From positions 1,741,657 to 1,805,656 of the forward strand of contig CAVOHZ010000010.1 in the NCBI GenBank assembly GCA_963695855.1: 64,000 nucleotides of DNA, given 5' to 3'. The notes under the pieces were generated by a model, which was given only the letters and a program-made list of their open reading frames with translations, ran no database searches and was not told the DNA's origin. Positions 31,393 to 53,387 of this stretch are shown piece by piece. The translations under genes and the position numbers were made by a program. The first letter of the stretch is position 1; each line of letters begins with the position of its first letter. Source of the stretch: an uncultured Nitrososphaerales archaeon. Lineage in GTDB: Archaea; Thermoproteota; Nitrososphaeria; Nitrososphaerales; Nitrososphaeraceae.

Positions 31393-31465
31393 ATCCGAAG
31401 CGCCGGGAGTGGGACTCGAACCCAGAAGGAGTACACCTGGGTTTGTTCGATATCACTAGAGCAAT
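31382..31465 (+). repeat. att junction: A arm, 23-bp tRNA-derived core, B arm
   Basis: Core gcgccgggagtgggactcgaacc (31400-31422) is the reverse complement of a tRNA T-arm plus acceptor strand (Ser most likely, Asn possible); exact copy at 53342. Confidence 0.9.
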
Positions 31466-31670
31466 GAATTAATGAATTATTATTTTAAAAAAAGAAAAAA
31501 ATGTTGTCGATTGATATATCGGCTTATTCAACTTGTCTATTACGAAGTACCTGAAGGTAAAAAGAACGAATTTAAGACAATCTTTGAATTATTTATTAAA
31601 TCTAAAAAATAAAATAACAGCATAAAAAACGAGTTCTTCATATACTATGAAGACTAATACAGAGTAAATA

Positions 31671-31943
31671 ATGACGACAGAATTCAGTTATCATTATTTG
31701 CCATATTGTGTTGCTATTTTCTTTCTTTTTTACTCTATGTTTTTATTGTTAGTCCACGGGGAATTTGAACAAGAAGAAGACTATTCAAACATGGATATAT
31801 ATGGAAACATATTTTACAACAATATTGAGGACGAAATCTTGGACACTGAACAACCCGTTCCAATGAATACCACAGAACTGATAGAAATAGGAAAGAATCT
31901 TACAATTATCCATAACCCTTCTACTGGAAAATATTTTCAATAA
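31671..31943 (+). CDS. MxTEFSY small secreted protein, copy 2
   Basis: Near-identical to 3525..3794. Confidence 0.7.
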   Translation: MTTEFSYHYLPYCVAIFFLFYSMFLLLVHGEFEQEEDYSNMDIYGNIFYNNIEDEILDTEQPVPMNTTELIEIGKNLTIIHNPSTGKYFQ

Positions 31944-32068
31944 AGACAATTGATTTTATTTATAGTGTGGCTAGAAAGATTGGAGGGATTGAAGCGTTGA
32001 ACTTCCGTGATATCCAGATGTGGCCGCAGATGTTATACTGAAAGGCGTCTACCTTGATTATTGTGATC

Positions 32069-32182
32069 TTAGTGGTATTCACTCACACGTTTACCGCAGT
32101 AAGTACATTTTAAAAGTCTACCGTAATTTGTAGCGTAAGACAACTCTCGCATGTTTCCTTTATTGCATTTTTTACAGCTCAT
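32069..32182 (-). CDS. 37-aa zinc-ribbon microprotein
   Basis: Manual translation MSCKKCNKGNMRELSYATNYGRLLKCTYCGKRVSEYH, two CxxC motifs. Confidence 0.6.
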   Translation of the reverse strand: MSCKKCNKGNMRELSYATNYGRLLKCTYCGKRVSEYH

Positions 32183-32496
32183 TCTTTTTAATCCCGTCCT
32201 TGTTGTTCTTCTTGTTGTTCTCGTTCGTTGTTATCCTCTTCTTCTGTTTCATCTTTATGTTCTTGTTGAATTGATACAACTGGAATAGGGCCTTTGTCTT
32301 CTGCTGGATTGTCCACTGGTTTTTGTTGTTGCTGTTGTTCTTGCTGGTTCTTTAGTGATTGTTGTCTATATGGTGTATCGTCAAAGTATACTTGTTGTAT
32401 TGGTTGCTGTTGCTGCTGTTATTCATGTAGCTTAATTATTATTTATTTCATTTTAAAATAAAATATTTTTAATATACAAATTAATAATTATTTATC

Positions 32497-32706
32497 GTGG
32501 TAAAATCACACCCTGGAGTAGACAGTTTACTTACCAATATTAGACGGGTTATTCCACCACGTAGAACTATGGAAATAACAGAAGAGACTTTCAAGGTATT
32601 GAAGGAACATGCATCTAAACATTATTCAAGTCCCCGTTATGACGAAGTGTTAGTTAATCTGGTCAAGTTCTATGAGAGTAATGACGGCCCAAAACATTAT
32701 GATTAA
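32497..32706 (+). CDS. Small RHH/antitoxin-like DNA-binding protein
   Basis: TMEITEETFKVLK..YDEVLVNLVKFYE. Confidence 0.65.
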   Translation: MVKSHPGVDSLLTNIRRVIPPRRTMEITEETFKVLKEHASKHYSSPRYDEVLVNLVKFYESNDGPKHYD

Positions 32707-33087
32707 TGAGAAAATAAAATAAAAAAAATAAAATAAAATATTAAAGTATAAAATAATAAATAAATAAATAAATAAATTTATTTAAATAAAGTAAAACTTA
32801 AGTACTACAAGGAAAAGAAAAGAACATAGTAAACCATTTATAAAAAAGAAATTGTTTTATAGATTCTATTTGGAAATGGAACAGTTCTTCTATTTAAAAT
32901 TGAAATGAATTGGTCAAAATATCACAGAATGATGATTAATAATACATTAGTATTACTTGACTGTTATAGTTTAATATTTTAAATTGAAAAGGCTCATATA
33001 AAAAAAGGGAGAATTGAGATAGGTTATTAAATTCTATCTATAGTTTTTAGTAGGTTTATTGAGTATATTGTTCTAGTATTAGTCAAT

Positions 33088-33849
33088 CTAATTTGGTGGG
33101 AATCCAAATTCTGCTGCTAGACAATCTTCTAAGGCTTGTTGTCCTCCTACTCCTAAATCTAGCTGTGCTTGGTCTATAACATTTTGGACACCGTTTTCCA
33201 ATATACCACGTGTTGGTGCAAGATCAAGTACCTGACATAGTTCTGTTAAACTATGAACTACGAATACATTTGCTACTAAAGTTATAGATATTCCTGGATT
33301 CTCTAATGTGTCTATTAGATTTTGAGCATTCTGCGCTGGGTCAGGAGAATTAGCAATTGCAGTTATAAAGCATCCTTCACATCCCTCTATCTCTATAGGT
33401 GGTCGTTGTGGGAATTGAACCTTCAGTTGATCGTTGTCATTCACATTTACACATATGTTTACCAGGTTCCTGTCGAAGTTTATTTTATCGAATGCATTAC
33501 CATTCTGTGAATTTGCCGCGTTTGTTCCTTCTTCTCCTTCATCTGCTGCTGCTGTAGTAGCAAAATCGTCTTCAGGTATTTCGGTGATATCTACACCGTT
33601 TACATTTATGTTACTGTTCACACACTTTATTTTCTGTATATCTCCATGAGAACTCTTTTTTTCATGGTTATCATATCCGTATCTATTGTCGTCTTGGTAA
33701 TAGTTGCTATCATATCCGTACTGGTGGTCTCCGTACATTTGTGCACCTGCACTTGTAATTGTTGATGGGTTTAGAGCCAGTATACTTGTCGCTAGTATTG
33801 CTCCCAGTATAGAAGCAAAAACTATCATTCTGTTTTTATTATTGCTCAT
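33088..33849 (-). CDS. Secreted CVNSNINVNG-family protein
   Basis: Constant module plus CEGCF..ELC..DCL tail. Confidence 0.85.
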   Translation of the reverse strand: MSNNKNRMIVFASILGAILATSILALNPSTITSAGAQMYGDHQYGYDSNYYQDDNRYGYDNHEKKSSHGDIQKIKCVNSNINVNGVDITEIPEDDFATTAAADEGEEGTNAANSQNGNAFDKINFDRNLVNICVNVNDNDQLKVQFPQRPPIEIEGCEGCFITAIANSPDPAQNAQNLIDTLENPGISITLVANVFVVHSLTELCQVLDLAPTRGILENGVQNVIDQAQLDLGVGGQQALEDCLAAEFGFPPN

Positions 33850-33990
33850 TACCTTCTTAAATGCAAATTTATTATATCTAAGGTTAGAAGGAACGTTATC
33901 CGATTCTGTAATATTTCAAGATTCTGAATCATTGACTATAAGAAGAATAGCAATTGATTTACAAGTACAATATGAGGTATTGTAATAATA
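33850..33990 (-). promoter_or_regulatory. Conserved upstream element copy
   Basis: Matches 14432-14570. Confidence 0.7.
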
Positions 33991-34064
33991 TTATGTGTTG
34001 GATTATAGTAAGTTAATTAATTCAAAATAAATAAAAAAGAAAAAAAGAAATGAGGGAGTTTCTT

Positions 34065-34844
34065 CTAAAGACAAATTGGGGTAAGAGCACAATCTGGGTC
34101 TTCACAATCTATCATATCATCATCATCAATTCCATTATTACATATTTCTATTAGTTCTAATACTCCAACCCCTACTAGACAATCCACTGTTGACGTAACT
34201 TGCTCTGGAGTTATATCAGGGAGACCTCGTAAAGCGTTCACTACTGTTCCAGTTTCTATTGGGCCATTAGGGTTGTCTTGTAGAATTTGACATGTTTCTG
34301 TAAATGTATTTCCTAGACGAGAATTGGCCATAAAGAACTGTTCTTGTTCTGAATTTAGATTATCAGTAAAGCAATCTTCACATGTCTCTTCTTCTTCTGG
34401 CGGTGGTGGAGTAACTTTTACCTGTTCGTTGTCATTCACATTTACACATATATTTACTAGGTTTCTCTCGAAGTTTATTCTATCTGCAAGTCCGTTACCA
34501 TTTTGAGTATTTGCTCCTTCTGCTGTTCCCGCTTCATTTGCTGCTGCTGCAGTGGCAGTACTGTCTTGAGGTATTTGGGTAATATCTATACCGTTTACGT
34601 TTATGTTACTGTTCACACACTTTATTTTCTGTATATCTCCATGAGAACTCTTTTTTTGATGGTTATTGTCATAACCGTACCTATTGTCGTCTTGATAATA
34701 GTTATTATCATATCCGTATTGATTGTCGTACATTTGTGCACCTGCGTTTGTAATTGTTGATGGGTTTAGAGCGAGTATACCTGTTGCTAGTATTGCTCCC
34801 AGTATGGAAGCAAAAACTATAATTCTATTATTACTATTGCTCAT
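34065..34844 (-). CDS. Secreted CVNSNINVNG-family protein
   Basis: Constant module, CEDCF module and an EICNNGIDDDD.IDCEDPDC Cys/Asp motif. Confidence 0.85.
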   Translation of the reverse strand: MSNSNNRIIVFASILGAILATGILALNPSTITNAGAQMYDNQYGYDNNYYQDDNRYGYDNNHQKKSSHGDIQKIKCVNSNINVNGIDITQIPQDSTATAAAANEAGTAEGANTQNGNGLADRINFERNLVNICVNVNDNEQVKVTPPPPEEEETCEDCFTDNLNSEQEQFFMANSRLGNTFTETCQILQDNPNGPIETGTVVNALRGLPDITPEQVTSTVDCLVGVGVLELIEICNNGIDDDDMIDCEDPDCALTPICL

Positions 34845-34975
34845 TACATTGTTAAATGCGAATTTATTATATCTATGGTTAGAAGGAACATTATCTAATC
34901 TTGTATTGTTTCAAGATTCTGAATTATTGACTATAAGAAGAATACCAATTGATCTACAAGTACAATATGAGTTGT
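34845..34975 (-). promoter_or_regulatory. Conserved upstream element copy
   Basis: Matches 14432-14570. Confidence 0.7.
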
Positions 34976-35099
34976 TATAATAATCTCAAGAATTATATTT
35001 TGTTAGTTTGTTAGTTAATTAATTGCTAAGAATTGGTACAAAACAAAAAATAAAATAAAAAAGGGGGTTGCTCCTTTGACATGCTAATTCCCATTTATT

Positions 35100-35933
35100 T
35101 TAAGGTATCGGTGATGAGATTGTAATTGAATTTGTTGCTGTACAGGTCTGTGCTTCTCCCGCCGTTATTGTTCCTGTTGTTTGATCATTAGTAGGATTGA
35201 TGACTTCATCACAATCTCCTGTAAATGATATAATAAGATTGACTATGCGGGGGATTGGTTCGTCATGAGAGTCGTTAAAATCCTCGAATATCTCTCGTGC
35301 CTGCGTGATTATTTCTGTTACTTCATAATCACCTGGATTCAACGTTACGACTGTTCCAGTAGTAGAACCGGTAAATTGAGAAGATGGATTTGGATTGTTA
35401 CCAGTCACTTGGAAAAGAAAATCACTTTCATCTAACGTTGATAGTAGGTCTTCACAATCATTTGGAAATTCGTTTGATTCTTCTGTACACTCAATTTGTT
35501 TAGCAACCGTCAAAGTCGTTTCTGGCGGTGGACTAACTTTTACCTGTTCGTTATCATTCACATTCACACATACGTTTACAAGGTTTTTCTCGAAGTTTAT
35601 TTTATCAAAGCCATTTTCATTTTGTGCGTTTGCTGCCTCTGGACCCGCTCCCTCATTTGTTGCTGCTGCAGCAGTAGCAGTAGTGTCTTCAGGTATTTGT
35701 GTGATATCTACACCGTTTACATTTATGTTACTGTTAACACACTTTATTTTCTGGATATCTCCATGAGAACTCTTTTTTTTATGGTTATTATCATATCCGT
35801 ATCTGTTGTCGTCTTGGTTTCCGTACAATTCCGCTTGTGCGTTTTCTATCATCGTTGATGGGCTTAAAGCCATTAGACCTGCGGCCACTATCACTGCGAT
35901 AGAAGCCAGAACTATCTTTGTCTGATGGGTCAT
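35100..35933 (-). CDS. Secreted CVNSNINVNG-family protein with Ig-like module
   Basis: Constant module plus TLTVAK..GNNPNP..QTCTATN. Confidence 0.85.
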   Translation of the reverse strand: MTHQTKIVLASIAVIVAAGLMALSPSTMIENAQAELYGNQDDNRYGYDNNHKKKSSHGDIQKIKCVNSNINVNGVDITQIPEDTTATAAAATNEGAGPEAANAQNENGFDKINFEKNLVNVCVNVNDNEQVKVSPPPETTLTVAKQIECTEESNEFPNDCEDLLSTLDESDFLFQVTGNNPNPSSQFTGSTTGTVVTLNPGDYEVTEIITQAREIFEDFNDSHDEPIPRIVNLIISFTGDCDEVINPTNDQTTGTITAGEAQTCTATNSITISSPIP

Positions 35934-36065
35934 TACATTGTTAAATGCGAATTTATTATATCTATGGTTAGAAGGTACATTATCTAATCTTGTAATATTT
36001 CAAGATTTTGAATTATTGACTATAAGAAGAATAGAAAATGATGTTTAGGTAGAAAGTTAAAACTC
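35934..36065 (-). promoter_or_regulatory. Conserved upstream element copy
   Basis: Matches 15737-15870. Confidence 0.7.
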
Positions 36066-36174
36066 CTAGATAGAAAAAATCGTACGAGAACGACAAGTAA
36101 TATGGGTTGAGTAACAATTAGACTAATTAAATTTCGTTAAAAAAAAGAAATAGAGGGTGGTTGGAGTAGGTGTT

Positions 36175-36966
36175 TTACGCTGGAGGGAAAGTACCTACAT
36201 CTCTTAGACAATCAACAATCGCATCTATATCTGCCTGTTCTATACTAGCAATACTATCAAGTTCCGATCTAAGGGCTTGTTCATTTTTGAATTGGTCAAG
36301 TATTAAACAATATCCGTCAAGATTCCGTGATGGAAATCCTGCTAAGAACGTTGCTAGATCCGCTTCTTCTTGGTCGTCTAAGATACTTGTAAAGCAGTCT
36401 TGACATGTTTCTGGGGGTGGTGGGAATAGTACTGGTAATAATGCTTTTTCGAAACAGTCAAAGAGACCTATTACAACTCTATCGATATTTGTATTTGTTT
36501 GTAATAGTACAGCATCTTCTATTATTTTCAATGCATCTACAGGAGTTACTGTTTCAGTTACAAGAGAATCAAGAGCAAGTTCTAGGTTTTTACAGATATC
36601 AAATAGTTGTGCGGTATTATACTCAGCGTTAGGTGATCCGGTCGTTAAACATGTTGCTCCCGAAACTGTTGATGTGGTATCATCTACACAATTAATACTA
36701 TCAAAATTAACAAAATTTATTGCATTAATCAATGCATTAAGAAGGGTACCTGTTTGTGCAGCATTCAAGAAATGTAACCAATACTTTACACATTCTTCAC
36801 ATATTATTTGTTCATCCGTTAACTCAGGTGGAAGTACTGTGGGGGGATCTGCTGAAGCTTGATTAGTGGATACCTGCATTGCCGATATCGGCTTTGACAT
36901 GTTCATGGTAGTTGCCAAAAAAAGCATAACTACTAGAGAGAGACCTAAGATATTTGATTTGTGCAT
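36175..36966 (-). CDS. Secreted Cys-rich protein with two CxxC helical modules, lacking the constant module
   Basis: Signal peptide; CEECV..DIC..DCF and CQDCF..YC..DCL. Confidence 0.8.
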   Translation of the reverse strand: MHKSNILGLSLVVMLFLATTMNMSKPISAMQVSTNQASADPPTVLPPELTDEQIICEECVKYWLHFLNAAQTGTLLNALINAINFVNFDSINCVDDTTSTVSGATCLTTGSPNAEYNTAQLFDICKNLELALDSLVTETVTPVDALKIIEDAVLLQTNTNIDRVVIGLFDCFEKALLPVLFPPPPETCQDCFTSILDDQEEADLATFLAGFPSRNLDGYCLILDQFKNEQALRSELDSIASIEQADIDAIVDCLRDVGTFPPA

Positions 36967-37187
36967 TGTTCTATTACTATCTTATATATATATTAATCTA
37001 GGGACACATTTTTCTCTAAATTTATGACAAAAATTATTTTCAGTCAGTTACTATAAAATAATTAAGAATATAATATAATAGAAATCTTATAAAAAGATTA
37101 AAGTTTAGATATTTCTAGTATTTTCATTAATTAAATTAATTACTAATATACTAAAAAAGAAAAAAGAGGTTTAGGTTTCTACCTATA

Positions 37188-37901
37188 TTACGCTGGCTCT
37201 ACAATTATTCCCAAATCTTCCAAGCATTGTAGGATGATGTCTCGGTCCTGTTGAGATACACCTTGACTATTTAGTGTGGTGTTTAACAATTGCCATTTCT
37301 CGGTAGATGATATTGCTGTGGATGTCTCTAGAAATTCACAAAGATCTGCAAGTGTATTTATATCTATTTCTTCTCCTGTAGCAGAATCAACAGTCTGATC
37401 AAAAATCATCAAGAAGCCTTCAAGATCTTCCTCACTTAGAATTGAAAAACAGTTTTCACATGCTTGATCTTCTTCTGGAGCAATAGTCTTTATCTGGTTG
37501 TTGTCATTCACATTTACACATATATTTACTAGGTTTTTATCGAAGTTTATTTTATCAAGTCCGTTACCATTCTCTGAATTTGATGCGTCTGTTGCTCCAG
37601 CTCCTTCATTTGTTGTTGCTAGGGCACTAGAGCCTTGAGGTATTTCTGTAATATCTATACCATTTACGTTTATGTTACTGTTTACACACTTTATTTTCTG
37701 GATATCTGTATGAGAACTCTTTGAATCTTTTTTATCATAACTATATCTATTGTCGTCTTGGTAATAGTTATTGTCGTGCCTGTATTGATTGTCGTACATT
37801 TGTGCCTGTGCATTTCCTACCATTGATGGATTTAGAGCCAGTAGACCTGCGGCTACTATCACGGTGATAGAAACCAGAACTGTCTTTGTCTGATGGGTAA
37901 T
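37188..37901 (-). CDS. Secreted CVNSNINVNG-family protein with ATT in place of the start ATG
   Basis: Homologous start reads ATT ACC CAT CAG; the frame is otherwise intact, with a CENCF module. Confidence 0.75.
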   Translation of the reverse strand: MTHQTKTVLVSITVIVAAGLLALNPSMVGNAQAQMYDNQYRHDNNYYQDDNRYSYDKKDSKSSHTDIQKIKCVNSNINVNGIDITEIPQGSSALATTNEGAGATDASNSENGNGLDKINFDKNLVNICVNVNDNNQIKTIAPEEDQACENCFSILSEEDLEGFLMIFDQTVDSATGEEIDINTLADLCEFLETSTAISSTEKWQLLNTTLNSQGVSQQDRDIILQCLEDLGIIVEPA

Positions 37902-38050
37902 TACACTGTTAAATACGAATTTAATATATCCAAGGTTAGAAGGAACATTATCTAATCTTGTAATATTTTATCATGCTGAATTATTGACTATAAGAAGAAT
38001 AGAAAATCATGTTAAGGTATAAAGTGAAATCCTAGTACTGCAGCAAGTAA
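37902..38050 (-). promoter_or_regulatory. Conserved upstream element copy
   Basis: Matches 15737-15870. Confidence 0.7.
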
Positions 38051-38131
38051 CTAAAAATATTTATCCTAACCCTTTCTTATTTCAATCGTTGTTATGTTAG
38101 GGGAACCAGAAAACTAAATAGTCTTCATAAA

Positions 38132-38311
38132 GTGGACCAGGTTAGGGTTATTCAATTAAACGAACAGACATACCAGAGATTAAGGAATCATTTTAATGAA
38201 TTTCACTGCGGACCAGAAGACTTACGCAATAATAAAGTTACTACCTATGACGACATAATTATCAAGATATTAGACTTCGAAGAAAAAAATCGAGATAAGT
38301 CTTATTATTAG
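38132..38311 (+). CDS. Small RHH/antitoxin-like protein, absent from the ORF track
   Basis: Manual translation ..VIQLNEQTYQRLRNH..TYDDIIIKILDFEEKNRDKSYY; start uncertain. Confidence 0.6.
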   Translation: MDQVRVIQLNEQTYQRLRNHFNEFHCGPEDLRNNKVTTYDDIIIKILDFEEKNRDKSYY

Positions 38312-38675
38312 TTACCAAAAAAGTTCTCTATCCTTGAACACTTAAATACGAACACTTAAATAACTGTAATGGTATATTATAATTAACACTAAAATCTCTA
38401 TAATGTATTTTTGCGGCACTAACCTTATTAAATCTAATGCAGAGAGAAAAAAAGAAGTATATGACATAACCTATGGAGAATCTTCACGCCCATTTAGTGG
38501 ATAACTTTCACGAACAAAATAATTGTAAGTGTTATAACAGTAGTAAATAAATAAAAAGTAGGTTATAACGTATAACCTTTGTAGTTTTTATTATCCGGTT
38601 TCTCTAATGTAGGAACCTTGACGATATTATCAGAAGACTACTGGATTTTTATGATAGTAAGGGGAAATCACAGAA

Positions 38676-39164
38676 ATGACTACTAGAGACGACGACAATA
38701 ATAACAATAACGATGAAGAACGTAAGGTAATTCTGGATGAAGAAGGTCAGGTAATAATTCTGGACCCTAAGCGTAATAAGATAATTGAATTTGTATTCGA
38801 ACAGGGCGGTAAGGAAGGTAGTAGAAGAATATACATTGATGAAAAATGTCGTTGGTATTGTATAGCCGCTTCTCTGAAAGATGCGAAAGAAGGTAGGGGT
38901 AAATTCTATAAATATACTGATTTAGGCAGAAAATTATTGTTGGAAGTTTTCGCTGAATTAGATAAAACAGGTCATTTTAATGATAAAGCGATCTATAAAT
39001 ATACTGATTTAGGCAGAAAATTATTGTTGGAAGTTTTCGCTGAATTAGATAAAACAGGTCATTTTAATGATAAAGCGATAGAAGAAGATTACTTCTCTGA
39101 TATTGTGGTTAGAAAGTGTATTGATATGATCAAAATCAAAAAGGACCTATCAGATCTTAAATAA
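38676..39164 (+). CDS. Hypothetical protein with an exact 87-bp internal duplication
   Basis: YKYTDLGRKLLLEVFAELDKTGHFNDKAI twice (38905-39079). Confidence 0.65.
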   Translation: MTTRDDDNNNNNDEERKVILDEEGQVIILDPKRNKIIEFVFEQGGKEGSRRIYIDEKCRWYCIAASLKDAKEGRGKFYKYTDLGRKLLLEVFAELDKTGHFNDKAIYKYTDLGRKLLLEVFAELDKTGHFNDKAIEEDYFSDIVVRKCIDMIKIKKDLSDLK

Positions 39165-39289
39165 AATTTCAATTTTATTAAATATTTAATATTTTTTTAT
39201 ATGCAATATAATTTTTTAAATAGACTTTTATTCTAATCTTCTTTTATTTTCTTTGTATGGATGGTGGTGGTCCGTTACGTGGTGGCTGA

Positions 39290-39487
39290 TTGGGTAGAGT
39301 TGTAGGGGAAACAAAAGAAGGGAAATTAATTCAGATAGAAAATGAGACTTTTGAAAGGTTAAAACAACATAACCGACATTATAATCATGATGATGGGAAT
39401 GTTAGTTCATTTGACGATATTATTGTTAGAATGCTAGATTTCTACGAAGAGAATGAGAAAAATAATGAAAGATGTTATTATTTATGA
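39290..39487 (+). CDS. Small RHH/antitoxin-like protein
   Basis: LIQIENETFERLK..SFDDIIVRMLDFYE. Confidence 0.65.
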   Translation: MGRVVGETKEGKLIQIENETFERLKQHNRHYNHDDGNVSSFDDIIVRMLDFYEENEKNNERCYYL

Positions 39488-39623
39488 TTATTATTATATC
39501 CATTATTCAATATCTTGAAAGGATTGAGACAGTAGAAAATTTTATTTAGGACAAAAATGGAAACTAAAAAATAGAAATAAGAATAGTCAAAATCTTTTTT
39601 ACAGAGGTGACTATCCTTATCTT

Positions 39624-39956
39624 ATGGGTAAGATATTAGAAAGTTATTTAACACGAAATAAAAAAGCATTGTTAGGTATCTTTTCAGTAGTTATACTAAC
39701 AATTTTTTTGGCTCCGAAAAGTTATAGTCAAGACTGGTCAAATGATGCAAGAAAAGCACAAACATCATTAGTAGACCAGATGAAATATCTATGTATAAAG
39801 CTGGATGAACTTTATTCAGAACTTGATCCGGATGAACTTAAAGAGGAATTGGAGGAAATGGAGGAAAAGGATATAAAACAAAAAGCAGAATGTGATAATA
39901 TATTGAAATCTGTAGATTCTTTTGAAAAGAAAGCAATACTCAAGAGATACGAATAG
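39624..39956 (+). CDS. Small secreted helical protein
   Basis: Signal-like N-terminus, acidic body, two Cys. Confidence 0.6.
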   Translation: MGKILESYLTRNKKALLGIFSVVILTIFLAPKSYSQDWSNDARKAQTSLVDQMKYLCIKLDELYSELDPDELKEELEEMEEKDIKQKAECDNILKSVDSFEKKAILKRYE

Positions 39957-40441: not shown

Positions 40442-40592
40442 AAATAAGGTAGAAGAGCTTTTAGTCACTCAGTCTCAAGAACCTGCTGATGGAGGCGAAG
40501 GTAGTGGTGATGATTTAGTAAATAAGGTAGAAGAGCTTTTAGTCACTCAGTCTCAAGAACCTGCTGATGGAGGCAATGGTAGTGGTGATGAT
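40442..40592 (+). repeat. 78-bp tandem repeat in a frameshifted acidic ORF
   Basis: NKVEELLVTQSQEPADGG(E/N)GSGDD twice. Confidence 0.75.
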
Positions 40593-41005: not shown

Positions 41006-41048
41006 AACATAATGAAGAATATGTTAAGAAATTATATTCTTTGTCTAC

Positions 41049-42930: not shown

Positions 42931-42970
42931 AGTATACCTACATTTTGCTTAACTTAATAGAACCCTATAT

Positions 42971-45552: not shown

Positions 45553-46845
45553 TTACCATTCTAGTTTCTTCCTTTCCTCCATTGATATTCTCTTTTTTGC
45601 TGTCTCAAATTTTTCTTTGTTTATCTCTATACCTACGAACTTTCTATTCAATCTTAATGCAGCCACTCCATTAGTGCCTGATCCCATCATCGGGTCCAAT
45701 ATCGTAAGATTTTCCAAAGTTAAATTTTTGATAATATATTCTGCTTCTGTTGTAGACTGTTCCCATGGATGTAGGGCCTTATCCATCTGTGGACGTGTGG
45801 ATTCAATAAAGTCGCCCATTGTACTAGACATTACCGACTCGTTAGGTCCACCTCCTTTCACATACCATAACATAGGCTTCCATTCTGCAAATATGTGTCT
45901 TGCATGCACCTTTGAATGATTTCCAGAATGTTTAACACAAAAAATCCACCAGTACTTTAGATTGTCAGTATTATCGCCAATTATCTGTATAACTTTCTCA
46001 AGAATTAAATGGCCTGTAAAAAAGACCAGACTACCCCCTGGCTTGAGTAATCTATCAGCTAACCAGCCTAGAGCTTCATAAATGCCAAGTGCTTCATAAC
46101 TGTAAGGCGGATCCGTAAGAATTAGGTCTATAGTGTTATCCTGTATCTCATTCTTTGCTATTTCCATGAAGTCTCCATGAATTAGCCTATAATTCTGGTT
46201 ATTGTTATTACTTGATTCACTAATACCGATATTAGACAAAAATTCCTGTCGCTTCCTATCCTTTCTAATCTTCTCGTATTCTTTATTTATTGTGCTTTTA
46301 CCTTTCCATAATCTTTTTAATTGTTCTTCCGTTCCGTATTCTCTAACTTTCTTATAACGTATGTAGGTACTCGGAGAAAGTCCTATTGTTTTAGATATTA
46401 TTTCAGACGTTTTACCCTTGTCGTTGTCGTTAGTGTCATTTGGCACTAACGACGAGATTATTATTTTGTTCTTTACATTTCGTAATTTTGATAACTGTCT
46501 TATTCTTGCTTTCTCGCTTTCTATATTCTCAAGTTCAAATCCGAGTTCTGCTTTTTGTGCTGCGTTTAACTGTCTTCTCTGTAGGTTAATTTCAATAACA
46601 AATTTTTTCTCTTCTAACTTGTTATCAGATTTCCTAATCTCATATGGTGGTTCGATACCTTCTTCTTTACCTATATCGAATCTGTTATGTCCGTCCAGAA
46701 TTTCCCTGTTCTCATTTACTATTATAGGACGATAAAATCCATTTTCCTTTATTGACTTTCTTAATGCTTCCTTTTCTGCAGGTAACAAAGCAGGAACCAG
46801 TTTTTCATATTCTGGATTTTTTCTGATTTCTAAATTAATTGTCAT
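45553..46845 (-). CDS. ParB-N domain fused to an N6A/N4C DNA methyltransferase (beta order)
   Basis: SIKENG..PIIVN..ILDGHNR; LILTDPPY precedes ILDPMMGSGT. Confidence 0.88.
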   Translation of the reverse strand: MTINLEIRKNPEYEKLVPALLPAEKEALRKSIKENGFYRPIIVNENREILDGHNRFDIGKEEGIEPPYEIRKSDNKLEEKKFVIEINLQRRQLNAAQKAELGFELENIESEKARIRQLSKLRNVKNKIIISSLVPNDTNDNDKGKTSEIISKTIGLSPSTYIRYKKVREYGTEEQLKRLWKGKSTINKEYEKIRKDRKRQEFLSNIGISESSNNNNQNYRLIHGDFMEIAKNEIQDNTIDLILTDPPYSYEALGIYEALGWLADRLLKPGGSLVFFTGHLILEKVIQIIGDNTDNLKYWWIFCVKHSGNHSKVHARHIFAEWKPMLWYVKGGGPNESVMSSTMGDFIESTRPQMDKALHPWEQSTTEAEYIIKNLTLENLTILDPMMGSGTNGVAALRLNRKFVGIEINKEKFETAKKRISMEERKKLEW

Positions 46846-46848
46846 TAT

Positions 46849-47934
46849 CTAAAAAAACTCCTTCATGTTTTGGTTATTGACCAGTATAGAGTACAAATTA
46901 CTATGATTGGATTTTATCTTCTCCCTGGACATGGGTCCGTACTGTTTGCTGTGTGCATATTTTATTGCGAGATTGATTCTGTAGGTAAAATTACTATCTA
47001 GTTTCCTGATTTTATCGCATTTATCCAACCATTGTTTAATTAAATTAAATGATTCTTCAAATGACAAACCTTTTACTTTGACAAGATAACGTGAGAGAAT
47101 TAGATCCGTTACTAGCTTCCTGCAGTCTTCTATTCCCGTCTCCAGTAATTTATCGATCCATTCATAATATTTTGAGTCAAAATTATTATTTGGATTTTGT
47201 TTACGATTCTGCTGTTCTATACTGCATCTAATTATTAACTGGTCGATTTCATTCCTTTTCAATTGATTTAGGAATTCTAAAACTAATGATTTGGGTACTC
47301 TCTGCCTTTTACCATTCCACTTTTGCAGTATCTTTACTTTGCCGGTACTTCCATTCTTTGAGTTTATGGTGTTCGGTACTCTCAACAAGCAGGACCTAAA
47401 CCCTGGAAAATTACCTTTGTCCGCATTGTTATCCGATAGGAAATCTTTACAGAATCTCAGAAATTGTTCAGAAGGTTTATCGTAATCGTCAAAATCTGGA
47501 ACATATTCTAAGGCCTTGGGAAAGTCTAACGGTTGTATCACATGGTAACCCCTTCCACTCCATAAAACGGTAGGAGTTGCAGTTTTGTCTTTTAGAAATA
47601 GCTGAATGTTAGATAGAGTCTTCGATAGTGCAGAATCCAAACCCATTCTAGAATAAAAGTTTTCAAGATCTAGATCGATAAACAAAATGTCAGGCTTCCA
47701 GGATAAACCAAAATCCAAATAGGAAAAGTAAAAGGAGTTAATTCTGCAGTCGGTAAACTGAGAACGTTCAAAGAAGTATAATGCTTCTTCTTTTGAATTA
47801 ACCTGTTTTTGTTTTGTCTTGGGTGTCATTATTGTTCTTGGGAATTGTGGACCCGTTAAGTGCGATAATATGAATTCCAACCCTTCTTTTATTTCCGTAG
47901 GTGCTGCAGTCATTGTTATCTGGTGGTGAGTCAT
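46849..47934 (-). CDS. AEP primase fused to a PriX-like domain
   Basis: FIDLD, SGRGYH, LLRVPNTIN; WIDKLL..I.D.RKL..DLIL tail; paralogue of 24791..25945. Confidence 0.85.
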   Translation of the reverse strand: MTHHQITMTAAPTEIKEGLEFILSHLTGPQFPRTIMTPKTKQKQVNSKEEALYFFERSQFTDCRINSFYFSYLDFGLSWKPDILFIDLDLENFYSRMGLDSALSKTLSNIQLFLKDKTATPTVLWSGRGYHVIQPLDFPKALEYVPDFDDYDKPSEQFLRFCKDFLSDNNADKGNFPGFRSCLLRVPNTINSKNGSTGKVKILQKWNGKRQRVPKSLVLEFLNQLKRNEIDQLIIRCSIEQQNRKQNPNNNFDSKYYEWIDKLLETGIEDCRKLVTDLILSRYLVKVKGLSFEESFNLIKQWLDKCDKIRKLDSNFTYRINLAIKYAHSKQYGPMSREKIKSNHSNLYSILVNNQNMKEFF

Positions 47935-48182
47935 CTCCTTCCCCTTTCCTTTCTCCTGAATCCATCAGCGTCAAAATATAGGAAATTATTCTCTTTCAAA
48001 AAAGGGAATAATTTTTTATGTTGTTTTTTAGAATTTGTTGAAATATTTTTAATTAGTATATATACACTTGGGGTTTTTGTTGTAAATACTGCAGATTTAG
48101 GGGGGTCAAAAATAGTCCCCCAGAGATAGGGTATTTTAGAAAAAATATTTTTTTGACTTTCTTGTGCGTTATTGTTAGTCAA
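47931..48182 (-). CDS. Small basic ORF between ATPase and primase (may only be origin DNA)
   Basis: Overlaps both neighbours in an operon-like way; contains the 40-bp repeat. Confidence 0.4.
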   Translation of the reverse strand: MTNNNAQESQKNIFSKIPYLWGTIFDPPKSAVFTTKTPSVYILIKNISTNSKKQHKKLFPFLKENNFLYFDADGFRRKERGRR

Positions 48183-50385: not shown

Positions 50386-50625
50386 CTACTCCTGTGGTGT
50401 GAGTTCGCTGTTCGTCGTTATTGTTGCCCTTGTTACCATGTGGGCGACACTTTCTTTTGTATCCTCTCCAAGGGGATTTCGAAAACTTTGATTCTTTAAT
50501 TTCATGCGAGAAATTTCTAGTATTTCATCAATACAGTTTTTGCAGACGTTAGGAGGATATTCTAATACTGTGTATGCAATAATAAAAGGCAGATTTTGTT
50601 TTTTGTCTAATTTTGAAGAAAACAT
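50386..50625 (-). CDS. Hypothetical protein of the replication operon
   Basis: 79 aa, 1 bp downstream of the AbrB gene. Confidence 0.5.
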   Translation of the reverse strand: MFSSKLDKKQNLPFIIAYTVLEYPPNVCKNCIDEILEISRMKLKNQSFRNPLGEDTKESVAHMVTRATITTNSELTPQE

Positions 50626-50626
50626 A

Positions 50627-50812
50627 CTAAAAATTCTCCATTTTTTCGATTGTGATTTTATTATCGGTTAAAAGGACTGATAGATAATCACCCTTGTCTA
50701 TATTGAGCTTTTTAGTAAATTGCTTCGGTAGAACAAAAGTTAGGGATCTTTTATCTGTATAAGACTGTACTTTTCTGACCACTTTTTGTTGTATGATTTG
50801 GGCCTGGTCCAT
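50627..50812 (-). CDS. AbrB/MazE/SpoVT-family regulator
   Basis: RKVQ..SLTFVLPKQFTKKLNIDKGDYL..KITIEK. Confidence 0.85.
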   Translation of the reverse strand: MDQAQIIQQKVVRKVQSYTDKRSLTFVLPKQFTKKLNIDKGDYLSVLLTDNKITIEKMENF

Positions 50813-50885
50813 TTACATGTAATACTCGTTTATCATAATTTTTATATTAGAATCTGACCAAATTATAAACGGAAACACGCATAAA

Positions 50886-51821
50886 ATGTACTATAAATCG
50901 AGAATTGTTAGCAAAAATCTGACGAATCTAACACGTAAGCAGGTTTTAAAAATTATTGCTGAAAGTCCCAATCCTCTCTCTTCTTATCAAATTCATAAAG
51001 AATGGATGAAAAGACATTCTCCTGGAAGTCCGAACCGCTATATTTATCAGATTGTCAGGGATTTGTTCAAGCCAGACGGAAACAAGAGACATATTCAGGC
51101 TATGAAGGGTTTTCTGAGAATTTCCTACAAAGAAAAGTATGAAAAAGAAATTTCTCGATTAAGGCAACGCTTTGGGATAGGAGTTGGAAAAAAATATTCT
51201 GACTATGGAAACGTGAGAGTTATAGTTTATAAAAATGCTAAGGAGGAGATGGATAGAACTCGTGCCATTCTCAAAATTGGTGATATGATGAGAAATATCA
51301 GATATTATAGATACAGTCTAAATTTCAAAGGTTTTTTGTTATATCTATTAAGCTCGTATGATGACTATGAAGAAATCTATGATGATAAAATAAGTGAAAA
51401 ACGGAACAATATTAGAACAGTATATCAGGTTATTAAAATTCTGACAACAAGAGAAGACGATATTAAAGATGAATTTGAATTCTTGCGTTATTTTAATGTG
51501 TTTGACGAAATATATGGTACAAAAGAATTTGTAAGGACTTTATTGGATATTGCTAATGAATTACGCTATCAACTAGAAATATTGACATCAGAATACATAC
51601 AATATTACTTTATGAGACGTTGTTACGAGGAAGTAATGATACGTATTACATTCATAAACCTTAACCCCTTTAAATCTTGGCTAAAACAAAAAGACAGAGA
51701 TAATATCAAAAACGAGCATTCAAAACTTGAATTGTCCAGGATCCAAATTCTAAATATATTGATACGACTACAAAAAGAACAGTTGAAGATAATGGAAGAG
51801 GATTTGAAACAAAATATCTAG
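50886..51821 (+). CDS. Hypothetical protein with wHTH-like N-terminus (putative regulator)
   Basis: QVLKIIAE..PLSSYQI..YQIVRDL; same position as 28527..29690. Confidence 0.6.
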   Translation: MYYKSRIVSKNLTNLTRKQVLKIIAESPNPLSSYQIHKEWMKRHSPGSPNRYIYQIVRDLFKPDGNKRHIQAMKGFLRISYKEKYEKEISRLRQRFGIGVGKKYSDYGNVRVIVYKNAKEEMDRTRAILKIGDMMRNIRYYRYSLNFKGFLLYLLSSYDDYEEIYDDKISEKRNNIRTVYQVIKILTTREDDIKDEFEFLRYFNVFDEIYGTKEFVRTLLDIANELRYQLEILTSEYIQYYFMRRCYEEVMIRITFINLNPFKSWLKQKDRDNIKNEHSKLELSRIQILNILIRLQKEQLKIMEEDLKQNI

Positions 51822-53278
51822 TGATCGTTTTCTGGTTTACGTGTCTGTTCCCATTTTTCAAACTTCTGCAGGATTTTAACCATAGTATCATCATGTTTTT
51901 TCATTGATTCCTGTTGTTTTGTCATCTGTTCTTTCATCATCTGCAGTTCTAGATTTTTCTGTTTTTCATTTTCTAATATCACCCGATAGGAATCATAAGA
52001 CAGAACCATCTTGCATTTTATACAGAATTTGGAATCTTTCTTGTTGGGTTCATTGCAATTATAACAGTAAGTTGATTTTAGTAAATTTGATTTGTCTCCA
52101 TTGTTGGAATCTTTTTTTACAAGACCCCTTGCCTCAAGAATGGAATTAACAGATTCGTTACCCAGATAATGTAAATAAATCTGTGGCATTTTGCTAGACA
52201 TGGTCCAACCTGCATGATTTCTCAATACATGTTCTTTCAGAATAAGACTTTTCTCAGTGAGGGAAGAATGACGTAACACGTAAGGGTTCCAGGGTTTTGT
52301 TAACATATTTCTGATATGAGATTTATCTGAATTGTGTACTGTTTGTTCGCCATCTATTTCGTCTTTAAGTAAATTGGGAAAATATACAGGTTTATAATAT
52401 CTGCAGTACTTGAACCTTAAACCGTCATAAGTTAATTTTTTTCCAAATGTTCTGTAAGTCTGCGAAACGAATAACCATGCGTTAGGATTTTCGGATGTTG
52501 GATGTGTATTTTGTAAGTAGTCTTTAAGATATGGAATTGAATCTATTAAAGGAACAGTTCTGGACCCAGTTTTCCCACCATTAATGTGAAGTTCGGCATA
52601 CTGCTTTCCCTCTTCTGTTATCTTCAAAGTAATATCTTTTAGCCTTAAGTTCAAGAGTTCGTGAGGTCTGGCAGAGGTATCGATTGCCATTGCGTGGAAT
52701 GCCTTATCTCTCTTTGAGGGACAATATTTCAAAAATACTGCATGTTCTTCATTGGTCCACAAATCGGAATTTTTGTAAAGTGTCTTTTCCTTTCTTGATA
52801 GTTGTTTTACTCCCTTCATTACCACAGGAGTAATCCTTTTTCTCTGGTCCGGTTCATCAGGATTATACAGCCATCTGAAAAATTTGTTTAATATTATTTG
52901 TCTGACGTTATAGGTTCCGATCCATTTTTGTGATTCATCCTCCAGTGTAGTTTTCTTTAAACTATCCAAATAACCCAGGATATCGTCTTTTGTCATTTCT
53001 CTAAACAGAATTTTATCATGAAAGAAATTTGATAACCAAGCAAGAACCTTTATCCTAGTTTCTATAGTAGAAATTTTTATATTTATTTCCGTTTTTTCAG
53101 CAATTATATAATTACAGATATCTCTTGCATTTTCTGGATTTCTTTGAGCAAGTTTTAACAAAGTATCTTTATAATATGATATAGATAGGGATTTGGTAGC
53201 TGTTTCTATCCTTTTCTGTAAGACATCGATATTGTTATACTTCTGTTGTTCTTGTTCTTGTTGCTGATTTGGAGTCAT
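51818..53278 (-). CDS. Tyrosine integrase with C-terminal zinc ribbon
   Basis: SARPHE, GKTG, YVLRH, HAGW, PQIY; CYNC..CIKC. Confidence 0.93.
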   Translation of the reverse strand: MTPNQQQEQEQQKYNNIDVLQKRIETATKSLSISYYKDTLLKLAQRNPENARDICNYIIAEKTEINIKISTIETRIKVLAWLSNFFHDKILFREMTKDDILGYLDSLKKTTLEDESQKWIGTYNVRQIILNKFFRWLYNPDEPDQRKRITPVVMKGVKQLSRKEKTLYKNSDLWTNEEHAVFLKYCPSKRDKAFHAMAIDTSARPHELLNLRLKDITLKITEEGKQYAELHINGGKTGSRTVPLIDSIPYLKDYLQNTHPTSENPNAWLFVSQTYRTFGKKLTYDGLRFKYCRYYKPVYFPNLLKDEIDGEQTVHNSDKSHIRNMLTKPWNPYVLRHSSLTEKSLILKEHVLRNHAGWTMSSKMPQIYLHYLGNESVNSILEARGLVKKDSNNGDKSNLLKSTYCYNCNEPNKKDSKFCIKCKMVLSYDSYRVILENEKQKNLELQMMKEQMTKQQESMKKHDDTMVKILQKFEKWEQTRKPENDH

Positions 53279-53324
53279 CTTGTCCTAATTGAAGTTTTGA
53301 CATTGTTATTATTAAAAATATAGT

Positions 53325-53387
53325 ACAAACCCAGGTGTACGGCGCCGGGAGTGGGACTCGAACCTTCGTCCATCAAATGTGGGTTCT
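53325..53387 (+). repeat. att junction: B arm, core, A arm
   Basis: acaaacccaggtgtac g gcgccgggagtgggactcgaacc ttcgtccatcaa atgtgggttct. Confidence 0.9.

Follow-up and report, generated by a model that had tools for sequence, protein, structure and literature searches.

An archaeal tRNA-Ser-integrating island pairs plasmid-like replication genes with a predicted tailed-virus terminase and no detectable virion gene

Introduction

Satellites of bacterial phages, such as the PICI/SaPI and P4-like elements, combine an integrase, divergent regulators, and a primase/helicase-type replication module of their own with a gene for packaging specificity (in many PICIs, TerS) and accessory cargo, carry no capsid genes, and are far smaller than related viruses. 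To our knowledge, the known capsid-less satellites (PICI, P4) encode TerS at most and use the TerL of their helper, and we know of no capsid-less bacterial satellite with a full TerL beside TerS. A satellite with its own TerL would be unusual, in that the enzyme must dock on the portal of its helper. In archaea, pSSVx/pSSVi, the haloarchaeal SRCEs, and the Asgard NMV2S join plasmid-derived replication modules to a fragment of virus morphogenesis or packaging functions. As far as the accessible parts of their descriptions go, the viruses exploited by pSSVx/pSSVi and the SRCEs are spindle-shaped, NMV2S is small and circular with no reported terminase, and an integrative island carrying both TerS and TerL is not among these elements. 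The cf-PICIs are satellites that encode both subunits, but, in the accessible part of their description, they also encode their capsid, portal, protease, and connectors, and tails are all that they borrow (10.1101/2025.02.15.638363). An initial annotation of the DNA studied here pointed to stand-alone terminases and cryptic elements in Nitrososphaerales, and one such element was already described in 2019, namely NitKor-E1 of Ca. Nitrosopumilus koreensis AR1, a "cryptic integrated element" whose terminase is termed enigmatic in the portion of the article available (Krupovic et al. 2019, PMC6563490).

Here we describe E1, a 21,965-bp (~22 kb) unit from a soil ammonia-oxidizing archaeon, where it is inserted in a tRNA gene. 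The window analyzed, 64,000 nt, is a tandem array of three elements, E0, E1, and E2. As judged from its ends and gene content, E1 is a discrete genomic island predicted to integrate at tRNA-Ser, with plasmid-like replication and putative tailed-virus packaging modules and no detectable virion gene. Like NitKor-E1, it is thaumarchaeal and harbors a tyrosine integrase and, as its only recognized Caudovirales-like genes, a TerL directly preceded by a probable TerS; NitKor-E1, in contrast, is by its available description a single case that comes from another family and encodes VapBC and a PD-(D/E)XK nuclease (PMC6563490). E1 also differs in its replication module (MCM-like ATPase and AEP-PriX primase), defined att sites, terminal inverted repeats, and tandem arrangement, as well as, compared by description, in the family-wide, multi-copy distribution of its TerL and the purifying selection on it. 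In gene content and size, E1 resembles the PICI/SaPI and P4-like satellites in the features with which they were introduced above, with a probable TerS and putative regulators, but it has an archaeal host, unrelated proteins, a full TerL as well as TerS, and no recognized capsid-remodeling genes. Unlike in cf-PICIs, no capsid, portal, protease, or connector genes were found in E1.

Boundaries and tRNA Target

The two exact copies of a 23-bp direct repeat that the initial annotation had taken to define both ends of E1 proved robust (2 matches, where 100 shuffles gave an expectation of 0.00; Table 1). The same 23-mer also terminates an intact, intron-bearing tRNA-Ser(CGA) gene on another contig, C2. 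Neither ARAGORN nor Rfam found an intact tRNA in the window, and neither att copy is part of one; the copy at the E1 distal end has no tRNA body attached, and no T-arm can be folded from the sequence upstream of it. Terminal inverted repeats, with 0 mismatches and a chance expectation of 0.03 per window, lie 8 nt and 1 nt inside the att copies. The ends are exact as claimed, but the completeness of the element is doubtful because TerL is divided into two overlapping ORFs by one extra A relative to an intact paralog.

Table 1. Coordinates of features in the window
Feature	Position	Strand	Remarks
att copy	31400-31422	-	E1 distal end and E2 proximal end; 3' 23 nt of tRNA-Ser(CGA)
Terminal inverted repeat, 15 bp, left arm (CAAACCCAGGTGTAC)	31431-31445	-	8 nt inside att
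E1 cargo region, ~12 kb	31446-43480		cell-type genes
Four paralogous secreted proteins	33088-37862		cargo
Secreted protein, 263 aa	36175-36966		cargo
162-aa ORF	38676-39164		cargo; 87-nt tandem duplication
DUF7557	39290-39487		cargo
PrimPol-like remnant	41049-41369		cargo; by eye
Cupredoxin	41669-42514		cargo
IS transposase fragment	42615-42875		cargo
P-II	42971-43324		cargo
TerL nuclease part, 140-aa ORF	43519-43941	-	other frame; frameshift at A5 run 43920-43924
TerL ATPase part, 355-aa ORF	43898-44965	-	phrog_2 3e-19
Probable TerS, 165 aa	44901-45398	-	N-terminal HTH; sits just upstream of TerL and overlaps it
ParB-like nuclease domain fused to N6/N4 DNA methyltransferase	45553-46845	-	PF01555 8e-16
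Primase, AEP-like N-terminal and PriX C-terminal domains	46849-47934	-	PF18689 PriX 2.5e-14
83-aa ORF	47931-48182	-	no match in Pfam/PHROG scan
AAA+ ATPase, 685 aa	48175-50232	-	MCM-like fold, winged-helix-like modules, C-terminal C2H2 zinc finger
79-aa ORF	50386-50625	-	no match in Pfam/PHROG scan
AbrB/MazE (SpoVT-AbrB) type DNA-binding protein, 61 aa	50627-50812	-	PF04014 1.6e-6; heads leftward operon
311-aa near-orphan ORF	50886-51821	+	divergent from AbrB operon
Tyrosine integrase, 486 aa	51818-53278	-	PF00589 2.6e-7, above cut-off; zinc-ribbon-like C-terminal tail
Terminal inverted repeat, 15 bp, right arm	53326-53340	+	1 nt inside att
att copy	53342-53364	-	E1 integrase-proximal end and E0 distal end
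E2, ~23.8 kb	~7601 to 31399	-	degenerate att 7578-7600; distal end probable
E2 TerL remnants	20341-21216
E2 TerS type 2	21282-21893
E2 PriX primase	24791-25945
E2 694-aa ATPase	25955-28039
E2 387-aa ORF		+
E2 Int	29803-31392
E0 distal part	53365-64000 (to contig end)	-
E0 TerL remnants	62370-63256
E0 TerS type 2	63388-63666

Regulatory and Replication Genes

The E1 genes run in the order integrase, opposite-strand 311-aa ORF, AbrB/MazE-type protein, ATPase, PriX primase, ParB-methyltransferase, HTH protein, TerL, and cargo. The integrase is 52-59% identical to three further full-length integrases of the same genome. The 311-aa ORF matches neither Pfam nor PHROG and has one homolog among 5.8 billion proteins. 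Its Atlas score of 0.88 is under threshold, with BlaI/Penicillinase_R as the lead, and its structure model is all-helical at low confidence (pLDDT 37.9). Transcribed divergently from the AbrB operon, it is a candidate repressor. The backbone of the initial annotation was recovered in its integrase, AbrB, ATPase, PriX primase, ParB-methyltransferase, and TerL, while its description of the 311-aa ORF as wHTH-like found little backing.

The 685-aa ATPase contains the P-loop Walker A motif APSGVGKN, read in the sequence. Its AF2 model (pLDDT 76.9) gave MCM2-7 and archaeal MCM as the best Foldseek matches (E~1e-6, TM~0.3), and it is probably a replicative helicase or initiator. It has at least 251 homologs; among the 120 listed, all 9 with a source name are a "hypothetical protein" of Nitrososphaeraceae archaea. 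In the primase, the putative AEP-like domain was assigned from motifs read by eye; FIDLD and SG-GYH show no variation across five primase paralogs, and a profile of these paralogs matches Sulfolobus PriX 4wyh (4.7e-12). No relatives of the E1 ATPase or primase were found in 2.9 million IMG/VR contigs, and therefore the replication genes do not appear to be viral. The E1 replication module, an MCM-like AAA+ ATPase with an AEP-PriX primase, is plasmid-like. The ParB-methyltransferase matches phrog_67 (7e-42) and phrog_12047 (1.6e-17) and, across 253 aa, shares 41% identity with a protein encoded on viral contig L067.

Terminase

The intact paralog of the E1 TerL is a single-frame protein of 482 aa, relative to which the extra A lies in the run at 43920-43924; contigs from two of four public soil runs have one letter fewer at 43920, and none of the public contigs spanned the att junction. 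The TerL family profile matches T4 gp17 (3ezk) at 0.0037. Across 21 homologs, the Walker A-like, Walker B, and C motifs and the two nuclease aspartates are unchanged (K90/G93/G95, D187-E188, T220-P221, D317, and D374 are invariant). Values of dN/dS between paralogs of 0.09-0.27, in both halves of the E1 gene, indicate that TerL is under purifying selection. The copies of the window are aging: the E1 TerL is frameshifted in the assembly, and those of E2 and E0 are decayed fragments. Together with the internal stops in 24 among the 150 TerL matches listed, this means that much of the observed terminase is dead.

The 165-aa ORF was called TerS in the initial annotation, and its N-terminal HTH, size, and above all position agree with a probable TerS; a family match is absent. 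Its PHROG matches are weak only. By Atlas score (0.94-0.98) it resembles proteins of ~150-230 aa, mostly from Nitrososphaerota, several of whose clusters include HTH or sigma-70-ECF families, and an E1-type TerS profile matches the ORF adjoining TerL in 10 of 20 loci of other genomes.

Search for Virion Genes

No capsid, portal, tail, or conjugation match was obtained among the scanned E1 ORFs, as the initial annotation had stated, within the limited sensitivity of such scans for archaeal structural proteins. E1 also contains no portal-size ORF of unclassified function. In the whole genome, PF05065 and PF04860 gave 0 matches, and profiles from related viruses (two portal groups and one capsid group) gave nothing credible among the 4,506 called ORFs; no helper provirus was detected by these means. 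The same portal and capsid profiles found nothing in 19 of 20 TerL loci of other genomes, and the 13 TerL copies of the genome are likewise free of adjoining structural-gene remnants. BLAST of all ORFs of eight viral contigs against the genome returned nothing beyond TerL, TerS type 2, the methyltransferase, and a 139-aa ORF, apart from a handful of weak, unrelated matches elsewhere. The provirus-type locus L035, which we take to be an Nvie-Pro1-type head-tailed provirus of Nitrososphaera, is from the same host family, and its TerL is 49% identical to that of E1. In contrast to E1, however, L035 harbors a portal-size gene and a capsid gene recognized by PHROGs (phrog_267/544) downstream of TerL, with no homolog in E1 or its genome. 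The absence of a capsid from E1 is weak negative evidence, because PHROGs were blind to the portal-size and capsid-size ORFs of related viral contigs, PF05065 did not pick up the known provirus capsid, the portal group matched nothing when its profile was run against the PDB, and the 311-aa ORF could not be modeled.

Distribution of the Terminase Pair

TerL relatives are present in 92 of 151 family genomes and in all 18 genera (361 matches, with as many as 13 or more in a single genome), whereas a recognizable provirus capsid and phrog_267 were each found in 5 of 151, all in one genus. Among viruses, 77 IMG/VR contigs carry TerL relatives with 25-54% identity over the best segment, and the closest relatives of the E1 TerL are in tailed-virus contigs. 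The best viral contigs (41-64 kb) show the ORF order TerS-size, TerL, portal-size, minor-head-like, and capsid-size, and the adjacency of TerS and TerL is kept in the archaeal elements as in viruses.

The ATPase-PriX-TerS-TerL order occurs at five loci of the genome. The synteny survey that the initial annotation had set as a test of its proposal gave a divided answer: PriX lies ≤6 kb from TerL on five contigs in four other genomes, but among 20 TerL loci fetched from other genomes PriX is present in none and an integrase in 6. Moreover, the two genes are distributed differently between genera, with PriX in 21/21 and TerL in 2/21 genomes of one and TerL in 20/21 and PriX in 6/21 of another, which argues that the terminase pair moves between backbones as a module. 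Outside the genus of E1, a 36-kb element of genome G070, bounded by a 19-20-nt tRNA-Pro repeat, encodes Int, an ATPase-PolB fusion, TerS, TerL, and restriction/defence-like cargo. From these gene neighborhoods, the TerS-TerL pair behaves like a module that has become attached to several kinds of integrative backbone across the family. Since its backbones vary, the single family of satellites proposed by the initial annotation was not borne out, and the pair does not mark one fixed element family.

Way of Life

An island with its own integrase, replication genes, and virus-type packaging enzyme and no detectable shell genes may spread in the capsids of a helper virus. A satellite-like lifestyle is our best reading, at somewhat less than an even chance. 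In the integrated state, E1 would be held under the divergent regulatory pair, the 311-aa orphan against AbrB. Infection by a head-tailed virus of Nitrososphaeraceae, the presumed helper, would lead the integrase to excise E1 at the 23-bp att sites, with replication to follow; the E1 terminase would then recognize and cut the island DNA and pump it into helper procapsids, and packaging in helper particles would spread the cargo. The defined unit and ends, the maintained terminase, its viral kin, the lack of detectable virion genes, the excess of terminase over capsid, the recurrence of the module, and the non-viral replication genes favor a satellite. The missing helper provirus, a TerL that would have to fit the portal of another virus, the decayed TerLs, the weak capsid negatives, the assignment of TerS mainly by position, and the inconstant backbone weigh against it.

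The terminase could instead work independently of capsids, serving the element or the host, in which case the island would be an integrative plasmid-like element. The plasmid-like, non-viral replication module, the cell-type cargo (restriction/defence-like in the G070 element), the accessory-module fashion in which the pair joins many backbones, and the lack of a detected helper in the genome would all fit. However, the ATPase motor and nuclease motifs are both conserved, as real packaging predicts, the subunits remain adjacent as in viruses, and we know of no capsid-independent role for a TerS-TerL pair; we consider this reading unlikely. On this reading the terminase would either cut concatemers as the element replicates or transfers, or serve in interference or defence by binding or cutting the DNA of an infecting tailed virus or by titrating its portal. 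Decay could also have produced E1, E2, and E0 from head-tailed viruses that lost their morphogenetic genes, with the terminase the last to go. The NitKor-E1 terminase is given as "likely a relic" in the available part of PMC6563490, and the frameshifted E1 TerL, the fragments in E2 and E0, the internal stops, and the remnants of other mobile elements in the cargo (transposase fragment, PrimPol-like piece) are in line with this. Yet structural-gene remnants are absent beside all TerL copies here and from 19 of 20 loci elsewhere, TerL paralogs show purifying selection, clean att sites and terminal inverted repeats enclose exactly the E1 gene set, the module order is repeated at five loci, viral contigs yielded no relatives of the replication genes, and the disparity between TerL and capsid counts would be hard to reach by random decay. 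We regard such an origin as improbable. Least credible, and in our estimate very improbable, is a complete virus of a new kind with its capsid among the unclassified or "cargo" ORFs. The candidates would be the secreted family, the 162-aa ORF, DUF7557, and the 311-aa orphan; the first three recur near TerL at several loci of the genome, and many archaeal structural proteins are invisible to sequence tools. However, the secreted family numbers ~22-25 copies, many distant from any TerL and with signal-peptide-like N termini, the cargo is wholly different among E1, E2, E0, and the G070 element, E1 has no unassigned ORF of portal size, and the 311-aa ORF is predicted, at low confidence, to be all-helical. 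In addition, capsids and portals of the HK97 type are the only ones with which terminases are known to occur, according to the part of PMC6563490 available.

Neighboring Elements and Cargo

The initial annotation had placed a repeat of the E1 gene order at 20341-31392. This order is present in E2, where the ATPase, the type of TerS, and the small ORFs differ from those of E1, but TerL is fragmentary, the ParB-methyltransferase is absent, and the distal end is probably at 7578-7600. E2 cargo comprises two MEDS genes, a response regulator, a methyladenine glycosylase, a PsbP-like protein, and members of the secreted family. E0, whose cargo includes cupredoxin-like, SBF transporter, and Usp genes, probably continues on contig C2:1-4435, where an integrase 88-89% identical in protein to that of E2 is followed by the intact tRNA; the two contigs would thus join. 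Segments of the E1 cargo are syntenic with a paralogous element at C10:1295-1301k.

Ends of the Island and Its tRNA Target

The main island, E1, is bounded by 23-bp direct repeats that are, as the initial annotation held, exact (chance expectation, 0 matches), and perfect 15-bp inverted repeats are located just internal to them. Because the inverted repeats stand just inside both direct repeats, the whole interval, cargo included, is a single recombination unit. The window forms the final 64 kb of contig C10 in a 3.55-Mb genome of 11 contigs with ~31% G+C, and the homologues of its proteins that bear a name are from Nitrososphaeraceae archaea. On the minus strand the 23-mer corresponds to the T-arm and acceptor 3′ strand of a tRNA. 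The tRNA body is absent upstream of both copies in the window, where neither ARAGORN nor Rfam found any tRNA. The genome harbors five exact and three near copies of the 23-mer, and the copy on contig C2 is the end of a full tRNA gene. With an ~16-nt D-arm insert deleted in silico, ARAGORN recognized this gene as a tRNA-Ser(CGA) that contains a canonical intron of 20 nt; the call was obtained in 178 of 600 deletion variants. The unedited gene was missed by both ARAGORN and Rfam, the latter seeing the T-arm only. As read here, this att-target gene contains two introns, the D-arm insert and the canonical one. The sequence 3′ of it is the same as that downstream of the 31400 copy and is accompanied by an integrase with 88–89% protein identity to that of E2, the neighboring element toward lower coordinates (92% DNA identity over 1,581 bp). 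E1 itself encodes a tyrosine integrase (PF00589), which, with the tRNA-Ser 3′-end repeats and the terminal inverted repeats, gives it the features of site-specific integration. In contigs of four soil runs (short Logan contigs of soil metagenomes), cover at the att junction, 53344–54000, was zero in run X1 and almost zero in the three others; stretches lacking cover carry no information in either direction.

E2 and E0, the stretch that begins at 53365, share an end motif that differs from that of E1. A second element had been placed at 20341–31392 by the initial annotation; the distal form of the E2/E0 motif at ~7.6 kb, followed by a degenerate att site, indicates instead that E2 probably extends over the longer interval listed in the table. 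E0 ends with the same distal motif as E2, contains cargo, TerL (large terminase) remnants and a type-2 TerS (small terminase), and continues off the contig; the C2:1–4435 segment begins with a matching integrase end. We infer the array order tRNA-Ser, E0, E1, E2, rather than observe it, because no overlap joins contigs C10 and C2. Additional exact or near att copies elsewhere in the genome all follow one or the other of the two element-end motifs, which points to more such arrays, or remnants of them, built from these element types.

Coordinates of the features discussed (window positions unless a contig or locus is named)
Feature	Location	Details
E1	31400–53364	21,965 bp; cargo: P-II, cupredoxin, four secreted-family paralogues, DUF7557, small orphans, transposase fragment, PrimPol-like remnant
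E2 (probable extent)	7601–31399	~23.8 kb; cargo: two MEDS proteins, response regulator, methyladenine glycosylase, PsbP-like protein
E0	53365 to contig end	cargo: SBF transporter, Usp protein
23-bp direct repeats of E1	31400–31422; 53342–53364	
15-bp inverted repeats of E1	31431–31445; 53326–53340	
Degenerate att	7578–7600	
23-mer copy on C2	C2:4436–4458	
att-target tRNA-Ser(CGA)	G000 (this genome) C2:4436–4560	minus strand
Additional att copies	G000 C8:164125–167199; C10:1276963, 1281810, 1734381; C3:471151	C10:1734381 is 7.3 kb before the window start
A run in E1 TerL	43920–43924	
Intact TerL paralogue	C10:1299889–1301334	482 aa; 88% identical to E1 TerL
828-aa ORF	G000:C10:478547–481033	
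1,792-aa ORF	L043:8669–14044 (G070:C43)	685-aa-type AAA+ ATPase (40%, 618 aa) and PF00136 family-B polymerase (1e-24)
ORF right after TerL, ~140–160 aa	L060:6832–7308 (G000:C10:1494829–1495308); L068:7887–8303	30% identity
540-aa ORF	18524–20146	between E2 TerL remnant and E2 cargo; DUF2963 match, 2.7e-5; acidic 24-nt and 45-nt tandem repeats
Secreted-family genes	33088–37862; 13679–15736	also ~20 other places
Tandem duplication, 87 nt	38905–39078	perfect; inside a 162-aa ORF
Tandem repeat, 78 nt	40435–40590	94% identity
Region without ORF ≥60 aa	~40000–40800	

Terminase and Replication Genes of E1

The identity of the E1 TerL is certain, and the 165-aa HTH protein that occupies the TerS position is probably TerS. 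Across 21 TerL homologues a deviant Walker A (K..G.G), the Walker B DE, the coupling-motif TP and two nuclease aspartates are invariant; the TerL profile matched T4 gp17 weakly. E1 had been described as complete, and its ends and gene set are indeed present, but its TerL is split into two ORFs in the window. The 88% identical paralogue is a single frame, relative to which E1 TerL has one extra A in a short run. Contigs from two of the four soil runs show one letter fewer at this run (X1, 4.4/6.82 depth; X4, 4.2/4.2), though their source may be either the E1 locus or a paralogue. The frameshift could be a recent mutation or an assembly error. Both TerL halves show dN/dS values of 0.09–0.27 against paralogues, indicating purifying selection. 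E1 carries, in a frameshifted copy, the ATPase and nuclease of a large terminase as in a Caudoviricetes provirus.

The E1 primase contains a C-terminal PriX domain (PF18689, 2.5e-14; PDB 4wyh, 4.7e-12), and FIDLD and SG-GYH are invariant in its N terminus; read by eye, they probably represent AEP motifs I and II. The AF2 model of the 685-aa P-loop protein (pLDDT 76.9) has MCM helicases as its top structural matches (E ~1e-6), with a TM of only ~0.3 because the alignment covers several domains; PDB sequence searches with this ATPase, single and profile, returned only noise. Together the MCM-like AAA+ fold and the PriX-domain primase with its putative AEP motifs make up a replication module. Also encoded is a ParB–methyltransferase fusion. 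IMG/VR yielded no relatives of either the ATPase or the primase family. A 311-aa near-orphan with one homologue lies on the opposite strand, divergent from the AbrB/MazE-type gene that heads the leftward operon, and its predicted model was unusable (pLDDT 37.9). A bacterial-type promoter scan of this divergent region was set aside as irrelevant, the host being archaeal. Elsewhere on C10, an 828-aa ORF begins with ~350 residues of TerL ATPase (67% identity to that of E1) and continues with a part that aligns, at 25% identity, with residues 176–676 of the MCM-like 685-aa protein; it appears to be a fusion, or a recombination product, of a terminase ATPase and a replication ATPase.

Search for Virion Genes

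No match to capsid, portal or tail genes was found in E1. Across this genome PF05065 and PF04860 gave 0 matches, as did phrog_267 and the capsid of L035, a provirus-type locus in a complete 2.5-Mb family genome. L035 served as a positive control: its TerL is 49% identical to that of E1, and a 576-aa ORF downstream of its TerL matches PHROG major head proteins. The L035 capsid and phrog_267 are each found in 5 of the 151 family genomes, all of one genus. PF05065 gave 0 matches across all 151, a result that is uninformative because this profile misses even the known provirus capsid.

TerL relatives are found on 77 IMG/VR contigs, the best of which show the classical late-gene order. Profiles of the portal-like (two groups) and capsid proteins of these related viruses gave no credible match among the 4,506 called ORFs of this genome, nor any in the 19 further TerL loci retrieved from other genomes. 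The absence from the genome of homologues of these portal and capsid groups holds at limited sensitivity, as PHROGs and PDB profiles are also blind to the viral portal- and capsid-size proteins: PHROGs gave nothing for such ORFs of the viral contigs L067 and L068 except a weak minor-head match (6e-4), and no PDB entry was matched by a profile built from six putative portals. For 98 large TerL neighbors, the Pfam and PHROG results comprise the 25 most frequent families, such that a lone capsid match could be hidden. The virus L068 and the genomic element L060 share a small ORF right after TerL; the gene that follows it is portal-sized in L068 but not in L060.

Distribution and Relatives

Matches to E1 TerL, 361 in total, are present in 92 of 151 sampled family genomes, a tally that includes the unpublished G035 and G077, and in 18 of 18 genera. 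This genome contains 13 copies and several family genomes at least 13. Among the 150 TerL matches listed, 24 (G077:C228 among them) have internal stops, and local copies of the terminase elements are decaying. The PriX primase family is found in 94 of the 151 genomes (including the unpublished G035, G077 and G099) and lies within 6 kb of TerL in five cases (G013, G052, G091 and, twice, G080). The two families are uncoupled by genus: genus g2 has PriX in 21 of 21 genomes and TerL in 2 of 21, whereas g5 has TerL in 20 of 21 and PriX in 6 of 21. Consistent linkage of integrase, AEP-PriX primase and TerS/TerL, as envisaged by the initial annotation, was therefore seen only in part. In this genome ATPase-PriX-TerS-TerL occurs at five loci, and an Int-TerS-TerL set adjoins tRNA-Val; but at 20 TerL loci of other genomes, picked for long contigs and none of them from G035, G077 or G099, a TerS-like neighbor was found at 11 or more, an integrase-like gene at six, a 685-aa-type ATPase at two and PriX at none.

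One relative, in genome G070, is a 36-kb unit bounded by 19–20-nt tRNA-Pro repeats, which were seen when the rest of the contig was included; the L043 locus alone contains no direct repeat. The unit encodes an integrase, a homologue of the E2 387-aa ORF, a 1,792-aa ATPase-PolB fusion, TerS and TerL, with a cupredoxin and an Eco57I-type methylase with PLD-SNF2 helicase as cargo. In a quick TerL tree with long branches, midpoint-rooted for drawing and read for interleaving only, viral and genomic sequences are interleaved.

Nature of the Elements

Several element classes share features with E1. Its large terminase is a trait of Caudoviricetes proviruses, but an HK97-fold major capsid protein and a portal were not found in E1 at the sequence or profile level. 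Nor does E1 contain the capsid, portal and protease that a cf-PICI carries with its TerS/TerL. A virus satellite of the PICI type integrates site-specifically, has a replication module of its own and lacks a full virion gene set; E1 shows all three traits, the last within the limited sensitivity of the searches. No conjugation genes are among the E1 Pfam matches and, with regard to the thaumarchaeal cryptic integrated element (CIE) class of Krupovic et al. (2019), E1 has an integrase and att sites and, apart from the terminase, lacks virus, casposon, IS and conjugative signatures. That study (PMC6563490) labels one such element enigmatic; as in that element, NitKor-E1, the terminase is the sole viral signature in E1. 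A terminase in a nonviral archaeal element stood in 2019 as a single unexplained oddity. Capsid-less terminase pairs are the rule in this soil-nitrifier family (92/151 genomes, often multicopy), a capsid being recognizable in 5/151.

Collectively, the observations are consistent with integrative islands that replicate themselves and that, on repeated occasions, took up the packaging module of tailed viruses and retained it under selection while carrying no capsid genes. The lifestyle that best explains this would be that of a satellite, in which TerS/TerL may act on helper capsids. A wider reading, which as a whole we hold only tentatively and consider rather doubtful, would join four propositions: that these self-replicating integrative islands are very common, unrecognized hyperparasites in soil ammonia-oxidizing archaea; that, with a full terminase holoenzyme and no capsid, they hijack procapsids of head-tailed archaeal viruses with their own motor; that helper lineages supplied the terminase on repeated occasions and that it was then reshuffled between PriX, ATPase-PolB and D5-like primase backbones; and that the islands are major vehicles for copper-protein, P-II, stress and defense genes among nitrifiers.

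Head-tailed viruses of bacteria have well-known satellites. We know of no precedent for an element with its own TerL but no portal of its own, a strategy found in no known satellite. If helper viruses package the islands, these would represent a satellite strategy of a new kind, in which the element supplies a TerL but no capsid, and a major channel of gene exchange between ammonia oxidizers; tools that treat TerL as a viral hallmark would then overcall islands as proviruses. The "two satellites" counted in a haloarchaeal preprint are presumably pSSVx and pSSVi. This 2025 preprint gives "only two satellites" as known in Archaea and describes pSSVx (10.1101/2025.02.15.638363), and a 2026 preprint adds a putative Asgard satellite. 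Described archaeal satellites are few: pSSVx/pSSVi, haloarchaeal SRCEs of spindle viruses and the one putative Asgard case. A 2025 virome survey of ammonia oxidizers reports capsid-less MGE families, with neither terminase nor satellite mentioned in its main text. In the hallmark criteria quoted from PMC13573593, a terminase by itself suffices.

Cargo and Repeated Sequences

No structural-looking proteins are among the cargo of E1, E2 and E0 (see table). The secreted family is present in ~22–25 genomic copies of ~250–360 aa, often in tandem and often a few kilobases from TerL loci. Its conserved N-terminal half is YGYDNN-rich and contains a KIKCVNSNINVNG motif, and its C terminus is variable and contains cysteine. 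The contig joints seen in the soil runs fall inside these repeated genes and are probably cross-matches between paralogues. E1 also harbors two short tandem repeats, of 87 and 78 nt, the second within a stretch devoid of ORFs of at least 60 aa.
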